A stretch of 64,000 bases of DNA from an uncultured Acidobacteriaceae bacterium. GTDB lineage: Bacteria; Acidobacteriota; Terriglobia; Terriglobales; Acidobacteriaceae. The notes under the pieces were generated by a model. The model saw only the letters and a list, made by a program, of their open reading frames with translations. It ran no database searches and was not told the origin of the DNA. The stretch covers positions 308,111 to 372,110 of the forward strand of contig CAWDBM010000008.1 of NCBI GenBank assembly GCA_963800565.1, read 5' to 3'. Shown here piece by piece: positions 20,086 through 48,557 of this stretch. The position numbers and the translations under genes are program-made. Position 1 is the first letter of the stretch, and every line of letters begins with the position of its first letter.

Positions 20086-20101
20086 TGGCGAATAACTTGC
20101 A
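20086..20101 (+). promoter_or_regulatory. candidate sigma-54 promoter upstream of the first DUF4157 cargo gene
   Basis: TGGCGAATAACTTGCA has TGGC at -24 (GG 20087-20088) and TTGCA at -12 (GC 20099-20100) with exact 12-nt register. It lies 46-61 nt upstream of the CDS. Confidence 0.6.
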
Positions 20102-20146
20102 AGACCCGCAGAGCGCTAGCCGAATCTAAGTTTGAGGTTTTGCGGA

Positions 20147-22249
20147 ATGTTCTCGCGCGTCTCCATTGTTAAGGAGTCTGCTGGCAAAATCGGGAAACCT
20201 CTATCGCGTCCCAAGCCTGCGCATGAGTATTTCTCTGCAGAGGAAACACCGGAATCTGGATTGTCTTCGCTGGCATACAGTTTGGCGGGGATTAATCTCT
20301 TTGCGCCGGGCGAAAACGGTGGCTCCAATTTCGTGTCCCGGTGCGCGCGCGTGCCCTGGCCGATGCAGGCGAAATTGCAAATCGGAGCGGTTGACGATCC
20401 ACTGGAAGCGGAGGCGGACCAAACTGCAGACCGTGTGATGCGCATAGCGGACCCGCCTGCAGCTCCACTCCGCATGACTTCAACCGCAGGTCAATTGCAG
20501 CGGAAGTGTTCCTGCGGTGGTTCTGGAAGCTCGGGCGGCGAGTGCAAGGAATGCCAGGAAAAACGTGAAGAAAAACAACTCCAGCGGAAAGCCAGTGCGA
20601 GCGCTCCCGTAAATGCAGTGCCGGACGCGGTCGGCAACGTTCTGCGCTCTCCCGGCCAGCCACTCGATACGGCGACACGAAATTACTTCGAGCCGCGACT
20701 GGCCTGGGATCTCAGCAACGTCAGGGTACACACCGATGCGCGCGCAGCAGACTCGGCGCGCCGCGTGAACGCACTCGCCTACACGGTCGGCAACAATGTG
20801 GTCTTCGGCAGCGGCCAATACTCACCTCGGACGGATTCCGGCAAACGTCTCATCGCCCATGAACTGGCGCACACGGTGCAGCAAGCATCTGGTTCGCACC
20901 TGCGATTGCAGCGGGCGGTCAGCAAAGACATCGCGAAAATCGAGAAATTGCTGAGCCGGAGTTTGTTCGATTGGGCAATTACCGACAGCGACGCGCATCA
21001 GGTGCTGGTGCTACTGAAAGCCCTACCAGCAGCTGATCTTAAAGACACGGTTGCTGAGATGGAAAAGGGCGGATATATCGGCAGGTTGTTCGACAACGTC
21101 AGCGATGAGGATCAGGCGAACGAAACCGCAATCCTGGAGAGCATTAATGATGTCCGGGTTCACAAAGGCGGAAAAAACCAAAAGGATACAGTGGGCTCGT
21201 GCGACCAATCGCAAAGGAACGAGATCGATACGCGAGTGAGCAAGACTCAAGAGTGGGCGGCCAAAGCGAAAGACCGCGTCAAGGAGTTCGCGGCCGATCC
21301 AGCGAAGCACGCCGATACCCTCACGATGCTTGACCGGCAATTTTTCCATTCGAAGAAAAATGGACAACTCTCCGAAGTAGACCAGAAAACCAATGCTAAC
21401 CAGATCGCCGACAATTTCCAGCTCGCTGAAAAGCAGATCAATCCGAAGCAGAACGAGTGCGCTAGTCCCTTTGATTCGGAGTGCGCGGCCTTGGCGCTTG
21501 CATACTGGAGAGAGGGCAAGAGGATTGTGCTGTGCAAGTCTTATTTCGGTAGTCCTTTTGAGACGCAGGTCTACAACCTTCTCCATGAATTCATGCATGA
21601 ATACGCACATGTAAACGACCGCGGCTACGGTGACGAGCGCGTTTTCGAATACCTGAGCCCCAAAGATGCGATCAACAATGCAGATTCTTACGCTCTGTTT
21701 GCCGTCGATGTGAACGCCCATACAACAACCTCACGGGAGCAACGGCCAGCACATTCCGAAGACAACATCTCCGATTGCGGCCCTCAAAAAGAGGAGGTGC
21801 GGCGCAGCTTTGCCTTCGCCAGCCGTATGATCATCAATGCACTCAACGCTCTCGGAGATTCGAATAGCACAGGCTTGTTCGAACAAACCCACTTCAAGAC
21901 GAAGGACAGGAATAAGTTACAGCGGTTCATCGAGCGTTGCCAGAAAATCGACAAGAAGTTTAGGGAAATGAACTTTCAGTGCGAGAAAAAGTGCAAGGGA
22001 AATACGCCTGGCTATTGGCGCACTTGGGGTTCGACAGTGCACCTCTGTCCTCCATGGTTCGGCATAGCGAACGCAAATGACCGCATCGATGAGATTCTCC
22101 TCATCGCGATTTCTGAAGAACTCTCACTCGACTACGGCCCAGAGGTCGGCAGCACCGCGTACACGAAACAGACTGAAGATCAAGCCTTTAAAAACACTAC
22201 TTCCTTCGTTGGATACGCTCGCGCCGTGACCAACCAGTGGTGGCCTTAA
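20147..22249 (+). CDS. DUF4157-domain protein with C-terminal aspzincin (M35-like) metalloprotease domain; putative eCIS cargo/toxin
   Basis: DUF4157 core GQPLDTATRNYFEPRLAWDLSNVRVHTD...AYTVGNNVVFG...LIAHELAHTVQQ (HELAH at 20858-20872). C-terminal HEFMHEYAHVNDRGYG (21584-) plus NADSYALFA fits the HExxH + DxxYG aspzincin pattern. ATG 20147 follows gagg; TTG 20132 is the alternative. Confidence 0.85.
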   Translation: MFSRVSIVKESAGKIGKPLSRPKPAHEYFSAEETPESGLSSLAYSLAGINLFAPGENGGSNFVSRCARVPWPMQAKLQIGAVDDPLEAEADQTADRVMRIADPPAAPLRMTSTAGQLQRKCSCGGSGSSGGECKECQEKREEKQLQRKASASAPVNAVPDAVGNVLRSPGQPLDTATRNYFEPRLAWDLSNVRVHTDARAADSARRVNALAYTVGNNVVFGSGQYSPRTDSGKRLIAHELAHTVQQASGSHLRLQRAVSKDIAKIEKLLSRSLFDWAITDSDAHQVLVLLKALPAADLKDTVAEMEKGGYIGRLFDNVSDEDQANETAILESINDVRVHKGGKNQKDTVGSCDQSQRNEIDTRVSKTQEWAAKAKDRVKEFAADPAKHADTLTMLDRQFFHSKKNGQLSEVDQKTNANQIADNFQLAEKQINPKQNECASPFDSECAALALAYWREGKRIVLCKSYFGSPFETQVYNLLHEFMHEYAHVNDRGYGDERVFEYLSPKDAINNADSYALFAVDVNAHTTTSREQRPAHSEDNISDCGPQKEEVRRSFAFASRMIINALNALGDSNSTGLFEQTHFKTKDRNKLQRFIERCQKIDKKFREMNFQCEKKCKGNTPGYWRTWGSTVHLCPPWFGIANANDRIDEILLIAISEELSLDYGPEVGSTAYTKQTEDQAFKNTTSFVGYARAVTNQWWP

Positions 22250-22483
22250 AGCACACGGAACGACGCAGTGTTCCCGAAATCATTCATCACGCCTCAACCC
22301 GCCTCTGCTTCAACACTGCCAATTCCTGCATAACTTGATGCCTACTCTTGCATGGCGAAAATCACATTATGTCCCCGCCAAAATTCCCTCCACCAGCCCG
22401 TTAGTAACTCAACAGCCCCGCTCCCATAGCGTTCCGCCGAATCCAGTCACCCTTGTCCCCGCAAGTCGCGGGTCCACGACATC

Positions 22484-47400: not shown

Positions 47401-48018
47401 GAGCAACTCGGTCCCGCCACTCTCATGGAGGGAAGCCGCCGGGCAATCTATATCGTCGTGGCAACGGACACACGCATCTCTGGAAATCGCATCGTCGATG
47501 TCGCACCGACCCAGACTCCATCCATGGGCATTTATGCCAGGGTCATCAGCCGCATGGATGTTATTGACAATGATGTGCGGCGCGCTACCACTACGCCCAC
47601 CAAACTGGATCAATCTATCTGGTACGCCCTCGATGCGATCGGCCAGACGATCAGCGTTCAGGGCAATCTGTTCGAATCTTATGCGGGCAACTCACAGGAA
47701 CCAGGCACAGTCGCGATCGAGGCGTCGCTGTCCTGCACCTTCAGCAACAATCAATGCTTTCTCAATGACCCTAATGGCGATGACAGCCCAGCGCTGGTCG
47801 TTGAGATCTCCGCCCCGTCGATTATCGCCATGGGAAATCTGGTACAGGGACCAACCGGGGGGCTCCCAACAATGGCTCCGGCATCCATGATTCTGAATCT
47901 TCCCAGCGGAACCAAGGTTCCTCCGGTCACGGTGATTGGAAATATTACATCGATGGGCATTACGGTCCTCCCGGGTCCCATGCCCGCAGCAATGGTGCCT
48001 CTAAATATCACCGCGTAG
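44491..48018 (+). CDS. giant fibre/receptor-binding candidate (DUF6519-like N-terminus, right-handed beta-helix repeats, FN3-like insert)
   Basis: MSFDSSRFTFNSWNDFSGVVMPQGRVQLDSDWNEW, as I recall the DUF6519 N-terminus. Repetitive I/V-x-N-N beta-helix turns. FN3-like SVSLEWAPVVGATSYNVYRT. Confidence 0.7.
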   Translation: MSFDSSRFTFNSWNDFSGVVMPQGRVQLDSDWNEWLAETARRIRAGTYDTLGPAVYPSTTPNAFLITPTGSAVSIGVGRMYVAGLLVENHGLPTPNSGGWIPPAVTASATQPAWDPALDELVGTNPIDYTQQPYYPNVTTIAPFPTTGGPFLIYLDVWLREITFLEYPDLIEKAVGVDTAGRLQTVWQVKWLDVSSAGSVTCTTPDSGIAPWESLIQPSAGRLTTGLVQSTPSGPCCLAPNTGYTGLENQLYRVEIHQPGTASSAPTGTFKWSNNNASVATQVIGIAPGQTVLTVQSTMKDSVLRFSANDWVEITDDWLELNGLQGELHQVSLVTDSANTIQLATPVSATSFPVDANNLTNPARHTRLIRWDQQGKVYKSDGTTVWTDLGAAGATGDIPIPPPGTAIILENGITVSFDLNPSTGEFYVGDYWNFAARTIDGTVENLTEAPPRGIHHHYARLAMLTLPSSATDCRVEWPPSGGEGGCDCASCVTAVSHNSGSWTIQNAVDAVQAQGGGKVCLGPGVYNIASAITISGSNQPAQGLAICGHALPTLQPTSSFQDDSIMLIEDAIDIEVDGIAFAGGASAATAAGAVINLAGLIVSTSTYVRVEGCSFGLATDTAQLSPAIGFGGTMLMDCTIRGNLFSNVELGITLIAITDRSLLTQLEIEDNQMYCTDGAVFLSLRELFVSGIRFANNFVQSTSGFVLSGQGTGVNIEDNTFSIAAATPTTGDPYDAAIVCNISVTRIANNVISIDSNTLTAAISGNQGLPAGTYVWVVTALDVSGRETLITSTATLTLTTAASVSLEWAPVVGATSYNVYRTVANSTSNTLLLDANVPPGSGTTVSYTDATPDSSLQNQIPTMQNDGIMLGSTTADSLMFGTQVIGNRIGDLIGSGITSPSTAALDTTIISQNQMLGLGGNGIVLSGLVTDIDIVQNSLASIALLAPPGKIAVGIQLQAAYRANLSENRIEQLGPATLMEGSRRAIYIVVATDTRISGNRIVDVAPTQTPSMGIYARVISRMDVIDNDVRRATTTPTKLDQSIWYALDAIGQTISVQGNLFESYAGNSQEPGTVAIEASLSCTFSNNQCFLNDPNGDDSPALVVEISAPSIIAMGNLVQGPTGGLPTMAPASMILNLPSGTKVPPVTVIGNITSMGITVLPGPMPAAMVPLNITA

Positions 48019-48023
48019 AAAGG

Positions 48024-48557
48024 ATGAAATTTATGAGCTTCGCGATATTCAAAGGAGAGAAAAACGTTAAAGACTTGGCGAAGAGATTGTTCGGGCTTTC
48101 CGATAAAAGCTCGCCCGCCAAAGTCGATCAAGCTACCGGCGCGCTACTGCAGGCCAACCCGCAGCTCAAGGATGTAAGCAAGGTTCCGGTTGGCTCTATC
48201 ATCAGTGTTCCTGCGACCGCTCCTCCCCTCAACCCTGCGGAAGCCGCGCCGGCAGCGGTCACGAACCGCGTTGCCATTGCCGGCCAAGCACAACATACGC
48301 TGGACCTGCTCAACCGGCGTCTTGCCGACATTGAGAGCCGTGTCACCAGCGACGCGAAAGCTCTCCTCACGCTCGCGCAATCCAAGCAAACGCAAGCCGA
48401 TGTTCAAAGCTCATCCGAGATGAAGGCGCAGATGCCGATCCTGATCACTTCACTTCAGACGGTGATGACGTCGACCGAAACCAGTCAAAATTTGCGCAGC
48501 CAGGCGATTTCCGGTCTGCACGCGAGCTTGCAGACGTTTGCTCAGAACAAGAGTTGA
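48024..48557 (+). CDS. hypothetical protein ending the eCIS operon (LysM-like N-terminus, helical C-terminus)
   Basis: LLQANPQLKDVSKVPVGSIISVP followed by a predicted coiled coil. 5 nt downstream of the fibre gene stop. Confidence 0.55.
   Translation: MKFMSFAIFKGEKNVKDLAKRLFGLSDKSSPAKVDQATGALLQANPQLKDVSKVPVGSIISVPATAPPLNPAEAAPAAVTNRVAIAGQAQHTLDLLNRRLADIESRVTSDAKALLTLAQSKQTQADVQSSSEMKAQMPILITSLQTVMTSTETSQNLRSQAISGLHASLQTFAQNKS

Follow-up and report, generated by a model that had tools for sequence, protein, structure and literature searches.

A complete contractile injection system locus of the Afp/PVC-related superfamily in a Terriglobales acidobacterium, with a candidate sigma-54 regulatory module

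Introduction

A train of phage-tail-like genes lies at 20.1-48.56 kb of a 64,000-nucleotide stretch of acidobacterial DNA (hereafter, the window; contig CAWDBM010000008.1 of assembly GCA_963800565.1, positions 308,111 to 372,110) and raises two questions: does it encode a complete contractile injection system (CIS), or instead a prophage remnant or a type VI secretion system (T6SS), and would the resulting machine act outside the cell that makes it? An earlier note, made from the letters of the sequence without database searches, had read it as a complete extracellular contractile injection system (eCIS) locus with an unusual gene order. The host is a Terriglobales acidobacterium. Our results point to an intact CIS of the Afp/PVC-related superfamily, lineage II, whose gene content is nearest to subtype IIa; taken jointly with our proposals on its regulation, assembly, cargo and extracellular action, we give this reading a probability of about 0.72. 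The locus is of a common, already catalogued type, and its sigma-54 activator, promoter and dyad module seems to be the only element that had not been described before.

Results

Integrity of the locus

Open reading frame (ORF) analysis revealed an uninterrupted, co-directional train of 22 intact genes on the forward strand, with lengths equal to those of their homologues. Ten junctions overlap by 1 to 11 nt (seven ATGA, two TGATG and one of 11 nt), which bears out the earlier proposal that the genes are translationally coupled. The GC content of the locus (55-61%) equals that of its flanks. A gene-for-gene identical locus is present in three independent public assemblies, which rules out an assembly artefact and allowed us to fix several start codons better. 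A scan for intrinsic terminators gave matches at or below shuffle expectation, and did not identify a clear operon terminator.

Sheath, tube, cap and ATPase

Family assignments were made with Pfam and NCBIfam hidden Markov models (HMMs) at their curated cut-offs and, additionally, with PHROGs (Table 1); the NCBIfam scan gave no match for most structural genes. The four assignments on which the identity of the machine hinges, namely sheath, tube, DUF4255 cap and gp25, had been proposed from the sequence and are confirmed by HMM matches above the curated Pfam/NCBIfam cut-offs. The locus thus has the phage-type sheath and gp19-type tube of the superfamily. In searches against the PDB, the sheath retrieves that of the Streptomyces CIS over its full length (8bky, 2e-82), followed by the haloarchaeal 9ezm (1e-68), Pvc2 (5e-50) and Afp3 (6e-38); sheaths from Afp/PVC align with the C-terminal sheath domain only (5e-50 to 1e-36). 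The tube protein shows 67-94% identity among relatives.

The cap carries the DUF4255/Pvc16_N marker, with a score of 152 versus a cut-off of 27 bits, and matches the Streptomyces cap 9gts_0A at 1e-3. It also has a conserved C-terminal extension of around 215 aa with a faint TIG/IPT signal, and is approximately twice as large as the Streptomyces cap (225 aa). The next gene encodes an Afp15-type ATPase within the cluster, with an N-terminal winged-helix domain and one classical Cdc48-clade AAA module (Walker A GESGTGKT), and its position after the cap is conserved in 70 loci. Its matches in the PDB, which holds no solved Afp15 homologue, are of the Cdc48/p97 D1 type (4e-28). Together with the DUF4157 proteins described below, the cap and the AAA+ ATPase are markers of the 'eCIS' superfamily, so that the earlier reading of a complete locus of this Afp/PVC-related group holds.

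Three conserved proteins of less evident function are interspersed among these genes. The 241-aa protein, found in 77 loci, contains four invariant cysteines (C76/C79/C178/C181) and is possibly a gp51-like baseplate assembly factor, judging from its sub-threshold family matches (Table 1); its profile found no relative in the PDB. The 226-aa slot protein has conserved ends (MSGYLQRL... and ...IxIHIGRIEV...SLDEYLKRR) and a variable middle rich in Pro, Ser, Thr, Ala and Gln, and an equivalent ORF of 182-336 aa occupies the same slot in 63 loci, except for two truncated calls of 14 and 106 aa. This suggests a possible tube-lumen or length-determining protein that might stand in for the missing tape measure. 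For the 85-aa protein encoded after the ATPase we found no family match.

Baseplate

All parts of a baseplate core are encoded, with homologues of Afp8, Afp9 and Afp11, as well as the LysM part of Afp7 and the tube adaptor. The tube adaptor is conserved in 47 loci in tblastn comparisons. The LysM-type protein matches Pfam LysM at 6e-3, under the cut-off. Paralogue 1 of the gp6/Baseplate_J proteins is related in PDB searches to T4 gp6 (5e-9) and to Streptomyces 9gtp_1K (1e-7), the latter being also matched by paralogue 2 (8e-7).

The 380-aa hub has no Pfam match and required a broader comparison. A profile from close relatives reached a single VgrG only (1.3e-4), and with P2 gpD as the only template, hhalign yielded a weak local match (E 0.03), a single sequence being too insensitive. 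An exhaustive search of representatives showed that the hub family comprises 1,863 clusters at 50% identity, and a diverse 57-sequence profile matched Salmonella 9rce_F (4e-17), AlgoCIS 7aef_q (1e-8), Anabaena 7b5h_AJ (3e-7) and Streptomyces 9gtr_q (5.5e-4). The AlphaFold model derived from this diverse alignment has a predicted local distance difference test score (pLDDT) of 92.6, and in Foldseek comparisons it matches Cis8 of the thylakoid-anchored CIS (tCIS; 7b5h_AJ, 3e-20) and AlgoCIS 7aef_q (7e-20), with a TMq of 0.71; other structural matches include T6SS VgrG, Pvc8, Mu gp44 and T4 gp27. Because the diverse profile and the structure both lead to CIS, VgrG and gp27 chains, we identify the hub as the gp27-like half of a split Afp8. 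The initial 'gpD-like hub' call is therefore confirmed by the profile (4e-17) and by the structural match (3e-20).

The spike, the other half of the split Afp8, had also been recognized correctly, although its start had been placed at 34312 and is corrected here to 34313. The 106-aa product that follows is tentatively assigned as a PAAR-like spike tip, since its position, size and invariant His and Cys residues fit this role; the best PDB match of its profile is the phiKZ PAAR tip (1e-3), and a conserved MPGP N-terminus fixes its start. The earlier PAAR/DUF4280-like designation is thereby weakly sustained, but not by Pfam, where PAAR_motif and DUF4280 score around 0.02, under the cut-off.

Gene order and classification

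A scan of one genome per species retrieved 221 stretches encoding a sheath relative, the best of which belong to metagenome-assembled genomes of Terriglobales/Acidobacteriaceae (81-73% identity). Among the carriers available in culture are Terracidiphilus gabretensis S55, Acidobacteriaceae KBS 83, Caballeronia arvi, C. choica and Paraburkholderia caffeinitolerans, and Candidatus Koribacter versatilis Ellin345 encodes a hub protein with 87% identity. The hub and the 751-aa protein each have approximately 6,000-8,000 homologues among the 8,000 candidates scored, designated 'hypothetical' or 'uncharacterized' where they are named at all.

We then compared gene order by tblastn of every protein from the window against 80 related loci. 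The arrangement sheath, tube, 241-aa protein, slot protein, cap, ATPase, 85-aa protein, DUF4157 cargo, a variable region, tube adaptor, LysM protein, hub and spike is kept in roughly 65-70 of the 80, from at least seven phyla, with examples in Acidobacteriota, Verrucomicrobiota, Burkholderiales, Nitrospira, Binatia, Planctomycetota and Chloroflexota. The downstream order (PAAR-like, gp25, both gp6/J paralogues, 751-aa protein and DUF6519 fibre) is unchanged in two further relatives (L086 and L087). Chen et al. (2019) had already described that the lineage-II subtypes have their own conserved gene orders and extra conserved genes of unknown function (PMC6899500). The claim of an unusual gene order is thus refuted: given the conservation among relatives and this description, a central block of cap, ATPase and cargo genes is the rule for the clade.

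Subtype IIa is the closest match in gene content. According to the same catalogue, Afp8 is split in IIa-c, there are two Afp11 copies in IIa and IIc, Afp12/13 are divergent in IIa and IIb, and Afp14 is absent from every lineage-II subtype (PMC6899500). Here, the hub and the spike are separate, overlapping ORFs, and both Afp11 copies match TIGR02243 (1.2e-81 and 3.4e-61). No homologue of the Afp14 tape measure was found with Pfam, NCBIfam or PHROGs, as is the norm for lineage II. Together, these features make the locus IIa-like.

Peripheral baseplate protein and fibre

The 751-aa protein is encoded at the position of Afp12, and the ATGA overlap of its gene with the upstream gene is kept in two relatives. 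Its family is very large (6155 homologues among the 8000 candidates scored), and is called 'hypothetical' wherever it is named. We found no Pfam family for it, and its profile has no match among PDB sequences. Its AlphaFold model, from a shallow alignment of sequences with 62-83% identity, has a pLDDT of 58.8 and is confident only for residues ca. 390-650; this region resembles, in Foldseek comparisons, a PL6 alginate lyase (7e-4), a pectin methylesterase and phage tailspikes. The parts towards both termini are also conserved. From this model, we describe it as a putative peripheral baseplate protein with a depolymerase-like domain. It had been designated 'gpI-like', a name that we abandon, because there is no family match, hhalign against P2 gpI yields a probability of 0.2 and the confident part of the model is a beta-helix. 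A preprint on the CIS of a soil Haliangiales reports an alginate-lyase-like gene that is syntenic with that system.

The tail fibre, with its DUF6519 domain and beta-helix, would be the receptor-binding protein, and its distal part matches Beta_helix (4e-8) and NosD (2e-9). The DUF6519 domain corresponds to eBAP5, a catalogued class of eCIS receptor-binding proteins with typical beta-helix distal domains (PMC12923769). Among relatives the DUF6519 anchor is kept and the distal domain is swapped: it is beta-helix/NosD here and in L087 (12832-16245), and Malectin in L086 (12265-15993). Such an exchange is the pattern expected of a receptor-binding protein. If both assignments are right, the presence of two different, depolymerase-like beta-helix proteins on one baseplate could indicate polysaccharide-coated targets.

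The last gene of the locus encodes a Ser/Thr/Gln/Ala-rich protein with no family match above noise in Pfam, NCBIfam or PHROGs. It was not seen at the same position in L086; in L087 the fibre gene is followed by an unannotated ORF of 133 aa.

Cargo proteins

Two genes encode DUF4157-linked proteins with the architecture of CIS cargos. Cargo 1 comprises a disordered N-terminal region, a DUF4157/eCIS_core domain (HELAH), a Tse3_N-like segment and an M35 aspzincin-like Zn-protease domain (HEFMH). Its start is most likely ATG 20147, with TTG 20132 as an alternative, and it is called as 700 aa in independent assemblies; position 20086, considered as a possible gene start, belongs instead to a putative promoter element (see below). 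Cargo 2 has a related N-terminal region and DUF4157/eCIS_core domain (HELAH), followed by a C-terminal domain that contains a second HExxH (HESRH) and lacks a family assignment. Both proteins share 53% identity over the N-terminal region and DUF4157 (172 residues) and are unrelated beyond, and each of their C-terminal domains is a putative Zn-protease.

This organization is that of Cgo1 and Cgo2 of AlgoCIS, which consist of an N-terminal region, DUF4157 and a variable C-terminal domain; there, the signal for loading lies in the N-terminal region, DUF4157 is not needed for it, and the cargo enters the tube lumen through the action of the AAA+ protein Alg15 (bioRxiv 10.64898/2026.05.27.728243). 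By analogy, the two DUF4157 proteins are probably injected toxins; gene content agrees with a tagged cargo, and its loading is a prediction. The interval between the 85-aa gene and the tube adaptor (29951-32154 here) is a hypervariable cargo island that varies from 0.6 to 4.7 kb among loci L004-L083. In this locus it also contains a 141-aa ORF, which had one tblastn match among 83 loci. In some loci, this one among them, cargo has a further slot, after the regulator and before the structural operon.

Prophage and T6SS readings

The genes for sheath, tube and baseplate have homologues among those of phage tails, and the locus might accordingly be taken for the remnant of a defective myovirus prophage or for an R-type tailocin that kills by membrane depolarisation, without a protein cargo. 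We consider this very improbable. The Pvc16_N cap, the AAA+ ATPase and the two DUF4157 cargos are eCIS markers absent from phage tails and pyocins (PMC8213781). In the flanks, for which the larger ORFs in 1-18.9 kb and 48.6-64 kb were scanned, there are pilus, transport, redox, efflux and regulatory genes, all of a housekeeping kind and with no evidence of a tRNA-type boundary, and the GC content is uniform with that of the locus. No capsid, portal, terminase, integrase, holin, endolysin or other lysis genes were found in the scanned ORFs of the window, and loci of conserved order occur in the chromosomes of many phyla.

A canonical T6SS is even less credible, to the point of being negligible. 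Such a system would also have a sheath, an Hcp-like tube, VgrG-like hub and spike, and PAAR-like and TssE-like parts, and a sigma-54 activator accompanies several T6SS clusters. However, the same scan of window ORFs did not reveal TssJ/L/M, TssA, TssK or ClpV, the sheath is a single 541-aa phage-type protein and not TssB/TssC, the tube is of the gp19 type, and a cap, a fibre and gp6-like proteins are present. With neither capsid/terminase nor T6SS membrane-complex genes in the scanned ORFs, the exclusion of both a prophage and a T6SS, already argued in the earlier note, is borne out.

Sigma-54 regulatory module

A gene for a sigma-54 enhancer-binding protein precedes the locus. The protein has an AAA+ sigma-54 interaction domain, with the contact loop GSFSGA, and a C-terminal helix-turn-helix, and lacks an N-terminal sensory domain. 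PspF likewise lacks an N-terminal regulatory domain. Of the 54 relatives that had enough upstream DNA to be counted, 27 encode a homologue on the same strand, no more than 6 kb before the sheath gene.

Two putative promoters of the GG-N10-GC type, P1 and P2, precede cargo 1 and the structural operon, respectively. Allowing two mismatches, the pattern TGGCAC-N5-TTGCW occurs 36 times in the window versus 34 expected, which is the level of chance; we therefore argue for these promoters from their position and conservation. Equivalents of P1 (TGGCGC-N5-CTTGCA) lie directly after the activator gene in L064 and L069. Of 30 relatives, 24 have an element of the P2 type that matches at no fewer than 8 of 11 positions, whereas only 15% of randomly drawn 205-nt controls reach this score (binomial p = 6e-15); the element lies mostly 41-44 nt from the same Met. 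This Met starts a conserved 79-aa ORF, which co-occurs with the activator (19/27 loci with it versus 5/27 without). A longer, 142-aa reading of this ORF (22335-22763) was discarded, as tblastn matches in 32 loci cover only its last 79 codons and P2 lies inside the extension.

Of 29 upstream regions, 62% contain the motif ACTGCCA, against 3% of the background; as deduced from aligned copies, the motif is part of a dyad, CTGCCA-N5-7-TGCA/TGGCAG. Among the 27 loci with the activator, 13 have this dyad within the 1.1 kb preceding the sheath gene, as against none of the 27 without the activator (Fisher p = 3.6e-5). The copy at 22315-22334 is thus a candidate activator-binding site, and the degenerate element at 20038-20056 may be a second copy. 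At the sequence level, then, the locus combines a GG-N10-GC promoter, a cognate activator and an upstream site, as in a sigma-54 operon. In the proposed scheme, the activator would bind the CTGCCA-N5-7-TGCA dyad and open both sigma-54 promoters, with P1 driving the stand-alone cargo gene and P2 the structural operon of around 26 kb, whose genes are largely translationally coupled. Transcripts would be expected to begin close to 20112 and 22510.

Our literature searches combining sigma-54/RpoN and contractile injection systems yielded T6SS papers only, and nothing on the Afp/PVC-related superfamily. In the catalogue of Geller et al. (2021), Sigma54_activat appears in a supplementary table only, as a weakly enriched 'shell' domain with 49 genes, 4 phyla and an odds ratio of 1.6 (PMC8213781). 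We lean slightly towards a wider proposal, that a large soil-bacterial lineage-II clade is under dedicated sigma-54 control, through a sensor-less PspF-like activator, an enhancer dyad, a -24/-12 promoter and the 79-aa first gene. This clade would comprise Acidobacteriota and also Verrucomicrobiota, Nitrospira, Binatia and Burkholderiales.

The window also contains a second activator, of the NtrC type and with a receiver domain, beside a HAMP histidine kinase (59844-62902, reverse strand), indicating that the host uses sigma-54 independently of the CIS. Separately, a sigma-70-like TTGACA-17-CATAGT element (10/12) lies at 18848-18876, approximately 95 nt upstream of the activator gene; such matches occur at shuffle expectation.

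Features and surroundings of the locus

Table 1. Annotated features of the contractile injection system locus and its regulatory region (positions in the window).
Feature	Position	Strand	Evidence or remarks
Sigma-54 enhancer-binding protein, 353 aa	18972-20033	+	Sigma54_activat 1.3e-57, AAA_lid_14 4.5e-14
Possible degenerate dyad copy, CTGTCTAATCCTGCATAAC	20038-20056	+	30 nt upstream of P1; 16/19 identical to 22316-22334 (direct reading)
Putative promoter P1, TGGCGAATAACTTGCA	20086-20101	+	GG-N10-GC; before cargo 1
Cargo 1	20147-22249	+	eCIS_core 1e-30, Aspzincin_M35 3e-17, T6SS_Tse3_N 2e-8
Dyad, ACTGCCAATTCCTGCATAAC	22315-22334	+	CTGCCA-N5-TGCA; around 150 nt upstream of P2
Putative promoter P2, TGGAATCCCAATTGCC	22484-22499	+	GG-N10-GC; 40 nt before ATG of the 79-aa ORF heading the structural operon
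79-aa conserved protein, first gene after P2	22524-22763	+	79 aa in independent assembly; no family match
Contractile sheath (Cis2/Afp2-like), 541 aa	22850-24475	+	Phage_sheath_1C 1e-10, Phage_sheath_1 2e-8
Inner tube (gp19/Hcp-like), 176 aa	24488-25018	+	Phage_T4_gp19 4.7e-41
241-aa conserved protein, Zn-ribbon-like	25021-25746	+	T4_baseplate 6e-5, just under cut-off; phrog_150 'baseplate hub' 5e-3
226-aa slot protein	25743-26423	+	Conserved termini, no family match
Tube/sheath terminator cap (Afp16/Pvc16-like), 424 aa	26423-27697	+	Pvc16_N 1.5e-44, residues 10-207
AAA+ ATPase (Afp15/Cis15-like)	27697-29697	+	AAA 3.9e-24, N-terminal winged-helix domain 4.5e-18
85-aa conserved protein between ATPase and cargo 2	29694-29951	+	Same position in 42 loci
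Cargo 2	29948-31585	+	eCIS_core 7.7e-29
141-aa non-conserved ORF in variable cargo slot	31669-32094	+	Called as 141 aa in independent assembly
Tube-fold baseplate adaptor (tube initiator, Cis5/7-like)	32154-32816	+	CIS_tube 7e-8
LysM-type baseplate protein (gp53/Afp7 LysM part)	32813-33184	+	phrog_7145 'baseplate wedge' 1.3e-7
gp27/gpD/Mu gp44-like hub, 380 aa (N-terminal half of split Afp8/VgrG)	33174-34316	+	Profile and structure
gp5/gpV-like oligonucleotide/oligosaccharide-binding-fold spike (C-terminal half of split Afp8)	34313-34867	+	Phage_base_V 1.8e-22, VgrG models
Tentative PAAR/DUF4280-like spike tip, 106 aa, GTG start	34939-35259	+	Weak Pfam, PDB, position
gp25/TssE-like baseplate wedge	35313-35681	+	GPW_gp25 1e-13
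gp6/Baseplate_J paralogue 1 (Afp11a-like), 1179 aa	35678-39217	+	TIGR02243 1.2e-81
gp6/Baseplate_J paralogue 2 (Afp11b-like), 963 aa	39335-42226	+	TIGR02243 3.4e-61
Putative peripheral baseplate protein, 751 aa	42223-44478	+	Conserved N-terminal region, central right-handed beta-helix
Tail fibre, 1175 aa: DUF6519 (eBAP5 baseplate anchor) and beta-helix/NosD distal part	44491-48018	+	DUF6519 1.4e-40
Last gene, 174 aa (177 from ATG 48024), Ser/Thr/Gln/Ala-rich	48033-48557	+	Called in independent assembly

Upstream of the activator gene there are genes for a type IV pilus, an ABC transporter, an oxidoreductase, AhpC and a glyoxalase-family protein. The pilus genes are part of a type IV pilus/type II secretion system (T2SS)-like cluster (1915-13124, forward strand), with an N_methyl pseudopilin (1915-2601), PilC/T2SSF (7216-8502), PilB/T2SSE (8642-10339), a PilN-like protein (11426-12004) and several further ORFs. 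Directly after the last CIS gene, on the same strand, is a HAD hydrolase gene followed by an operon for an OEP-HlyD-MFS tripartite efflux system (49246-54433), with no evident link to the locus. Also downstream are genes for Usp, a cytidylate-kinase-like protein, Fpg, the NtrC-type two-component pair and NrfD.

Discussion

Assembly and mode of action

From the homology with solved CIS structures, the gp27-like hub, the gp5-like spike and the PAAR-like tip would nucleate the baseplate, which would also take in the LysM protein, the tube adaptor, gp25 and the two gp6-like proteins; its periphery would carry the DUF6519 fibre and the 751-aa beta-helix protein. The gp19 tube and the sheath would polymerise on this baseplate, with the Pvc16-type cap closing them off. 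The Cdc48-type ATPase would load both DUF4157 proteins into the tube lumen via their shared N-terminal region, as the analogy with AlgoCIS Cgo1/Cgo2 suggests. The particles would then leave the cell by lysis, use their beta-helix proteins to bind surface polysaccharide of a target cell, and contract to inject the cargo.

The extracellular part of this proposal is the one with a serious competitor, because the machine could instead work inside, or at the envelope of, its producer, either in a cytoplasmic, stress-induced death response, as in Streptomyces, or by firing outwards from a membrane anchor, as in haloarchaea. The closest solved sheaths come precisely from these systems (Streptomyces 8bky/8bl4, 2e-82; Halogeometricum 9ezm, 1e-68), the IIa-like gene content is that of the clade of the haloarchaeal T6SS-like system, the locus has no lysis cassette, and sigma-54 control is typical of T6SS clusters. 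Nevertheless, the Streptomyces clusters encode no tail fibre and rely on membrane proteins (CisA and transmembrane effectors), and the haloarchaeal mode correlates with a conserved membrane anchor. Here, in contrast, there are a 1175-aa DUF6519 fibre, with a distal domain exchanged among relatives as for a receptor-binding protein, and a second beta-helix protein. Also, Kyte-Doolittle analysis detected no clear transmembrane helix in the proteins of the locus; the only hits were within the sheath, hub, PAAR-like and fibre proteins, and we read them as buried strands. The DUF6519/eBAP5 fibre, its swapped distal domain, the second beta-helix protein and the lack of a clear transmembrane helix lead us to favour the extracellular reading, and the particle probably acts outside the cell; an intracellular or envelope-bound mode is unlikely, although clearly less so than a prophage or a T6SS.

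Several observations weigh against our interpretation. The locus is known here from its genes alone, and neither particle, transcript nor target has been observed. The nearest solved sheaths are from systems that are internal to the producer (Streptomyces, cytoplasmic) or anchored to its membrane (Halogeometricum, clade IIa), and belonging to the superfamily is thus no guide to whether a machine acts outside the cell. The locus has neither a lysis cassette nor a recognisable tape measure. Regarding regulation, P1 and P2 each have 2-3 mismatches to TGGCAC-N5-TTGCW, promoter-type matches across the window are at chance level, only about half of the relatives have the activator, and the link between dyad and activator is a correlation. 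Lastly, the IIa assignment reflects gene content rather than an Afp11 phylogeny.

Significance of the locus

By itself, the locus adds little, as thousands of equivalents are public and its class, gene order, DUF4157 cargo and DUF6519 fibres are all catalogued. It is, though, a clean, intact and annotated example from Acidobacteriota, a phylum among the most abundant and least tractable in soil and from which no CIS has been experimentally characterised. It also exposes very large families that lack annotation, namely the 751-aa beta-helix protein, the 380-aa hub, the 241-aa Cys4 protein and the 226-aa slot protein, of which the hub family is now placed structurally. More generally, it illustrates that an 'eCIS' gene content does not establish extracellular action.

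The sigma-54 module might offer a route to induce particle production in culturable carriers of related loci, such as Ca. Koribacter versatilis Ellin345, T. gabretensis S55, KBS 83 and the Caballeronia/Paraburkholderia strains. If the proposal is right, it would bring a T6SS-like regulatory logic to the Afp/PVC-related superfamily, for which none has yet been described, and provide a handle for switching on otherwise silent machines in these bacteria.

Comparison with known systems

The regulatory arrangement has its nearest parallel in T6SS under sigma-54 control, where, like here, a dedicated activator is encoded beside the operon of a contractile machine with GG-N10-GC promoters. VasH of Vibrio cholerae is one such activator. 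This precedent, however, concerns T6SS and not the Afp/PVC superfamily, and the activator found here lacks an N-terminal regulatory domain.

In gene content, the locus is closest to lineage II of dbeCIS (PMC6899500) and to the catalogue of Geller et al. (PMC8213781), with the same core of Afp1/5, 2-4, 7, 8, 9, 11, 15 and 16 homologues and, tentatively, Afp10. Like here, subtype IIa of dbeCIS has a split Afp8, two Afp11, no Afp14 and extra subtype-specific genes; its Afp12/13 are divergent, and the 751-aa protein and the fibre may be their equivalents in this locus. Catalogued loci also have DUF4157-linked cargo, and acidobacterial loci are already listed in these catalogues (PMC6899500, PMC8213781). 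These catalogues do not discuss the sigma-54 module found here.

Among characterised systems, CIS-Sc from Streptomyces coelicolor has the closest solved sheath (full length, 2e-82; PMC10066040), and its cap, Baseplate_J protein and Cis8 are related to their counterparts here; both come from soil organisms and lack an Afp14 tape measure. However, CIS-Sc is cytoplasmic and has no tail fibre (PMC10066040), whereas a fibre is encoded here, and as a system of subtype IId it has one Afp11 and an undivided Cis8, versus two Afp11 and a split Afp8. It also requires CisA, a membrane protein, and transmembrane effectors (PMC12237407), which are absent from this locus. The T6SS-like CIS of Halogeometricum borinquense (PMC11566945) belongs to clade IIa and has two Afp11 copies (of which Cis11a is named), and its sheath (9ezm) matches at 1e-68. 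It is bound to the cytoplasmic membrane via a conserved anchor protein, whereas no anchor or transmembrane protein is encoded here, and the envelope of the present host is diderm, unlike that of Halogeometricum.

AlgoCIS from Algoriphagus machipongonensis is an extracellular particle with fibres (PMC8894135). Its cargos have the same architecture as the two found here and are loaded into the lumen with the help of an AAA+ ATPase (10.64898/2026.05.27.728243), and Alg8 matches our hub model (7aef_q, E 7e-20). In contrast, its sheath is distant (7adz, 1e-33, matched over the C-terminal domain only), Alg8 combines in one protein the hub and spike that are separate here, and its fibre type and gene order differ from those of this locus. 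Finally, Afp from Serratia and PVC from Photorhabdus (subtype Ia) share the cap (Pvc16_N), AAA+ ATPase, gp25, J-type baseplate, fibres and lumen-loaded toxins. They differ in gene order, in having three sheath paralogues versus one here, in the presence of the Afp14 tape measure, in their toxins, which lack DUF4157, and in their regulation, which is of the RfaH type (PMC8213781).

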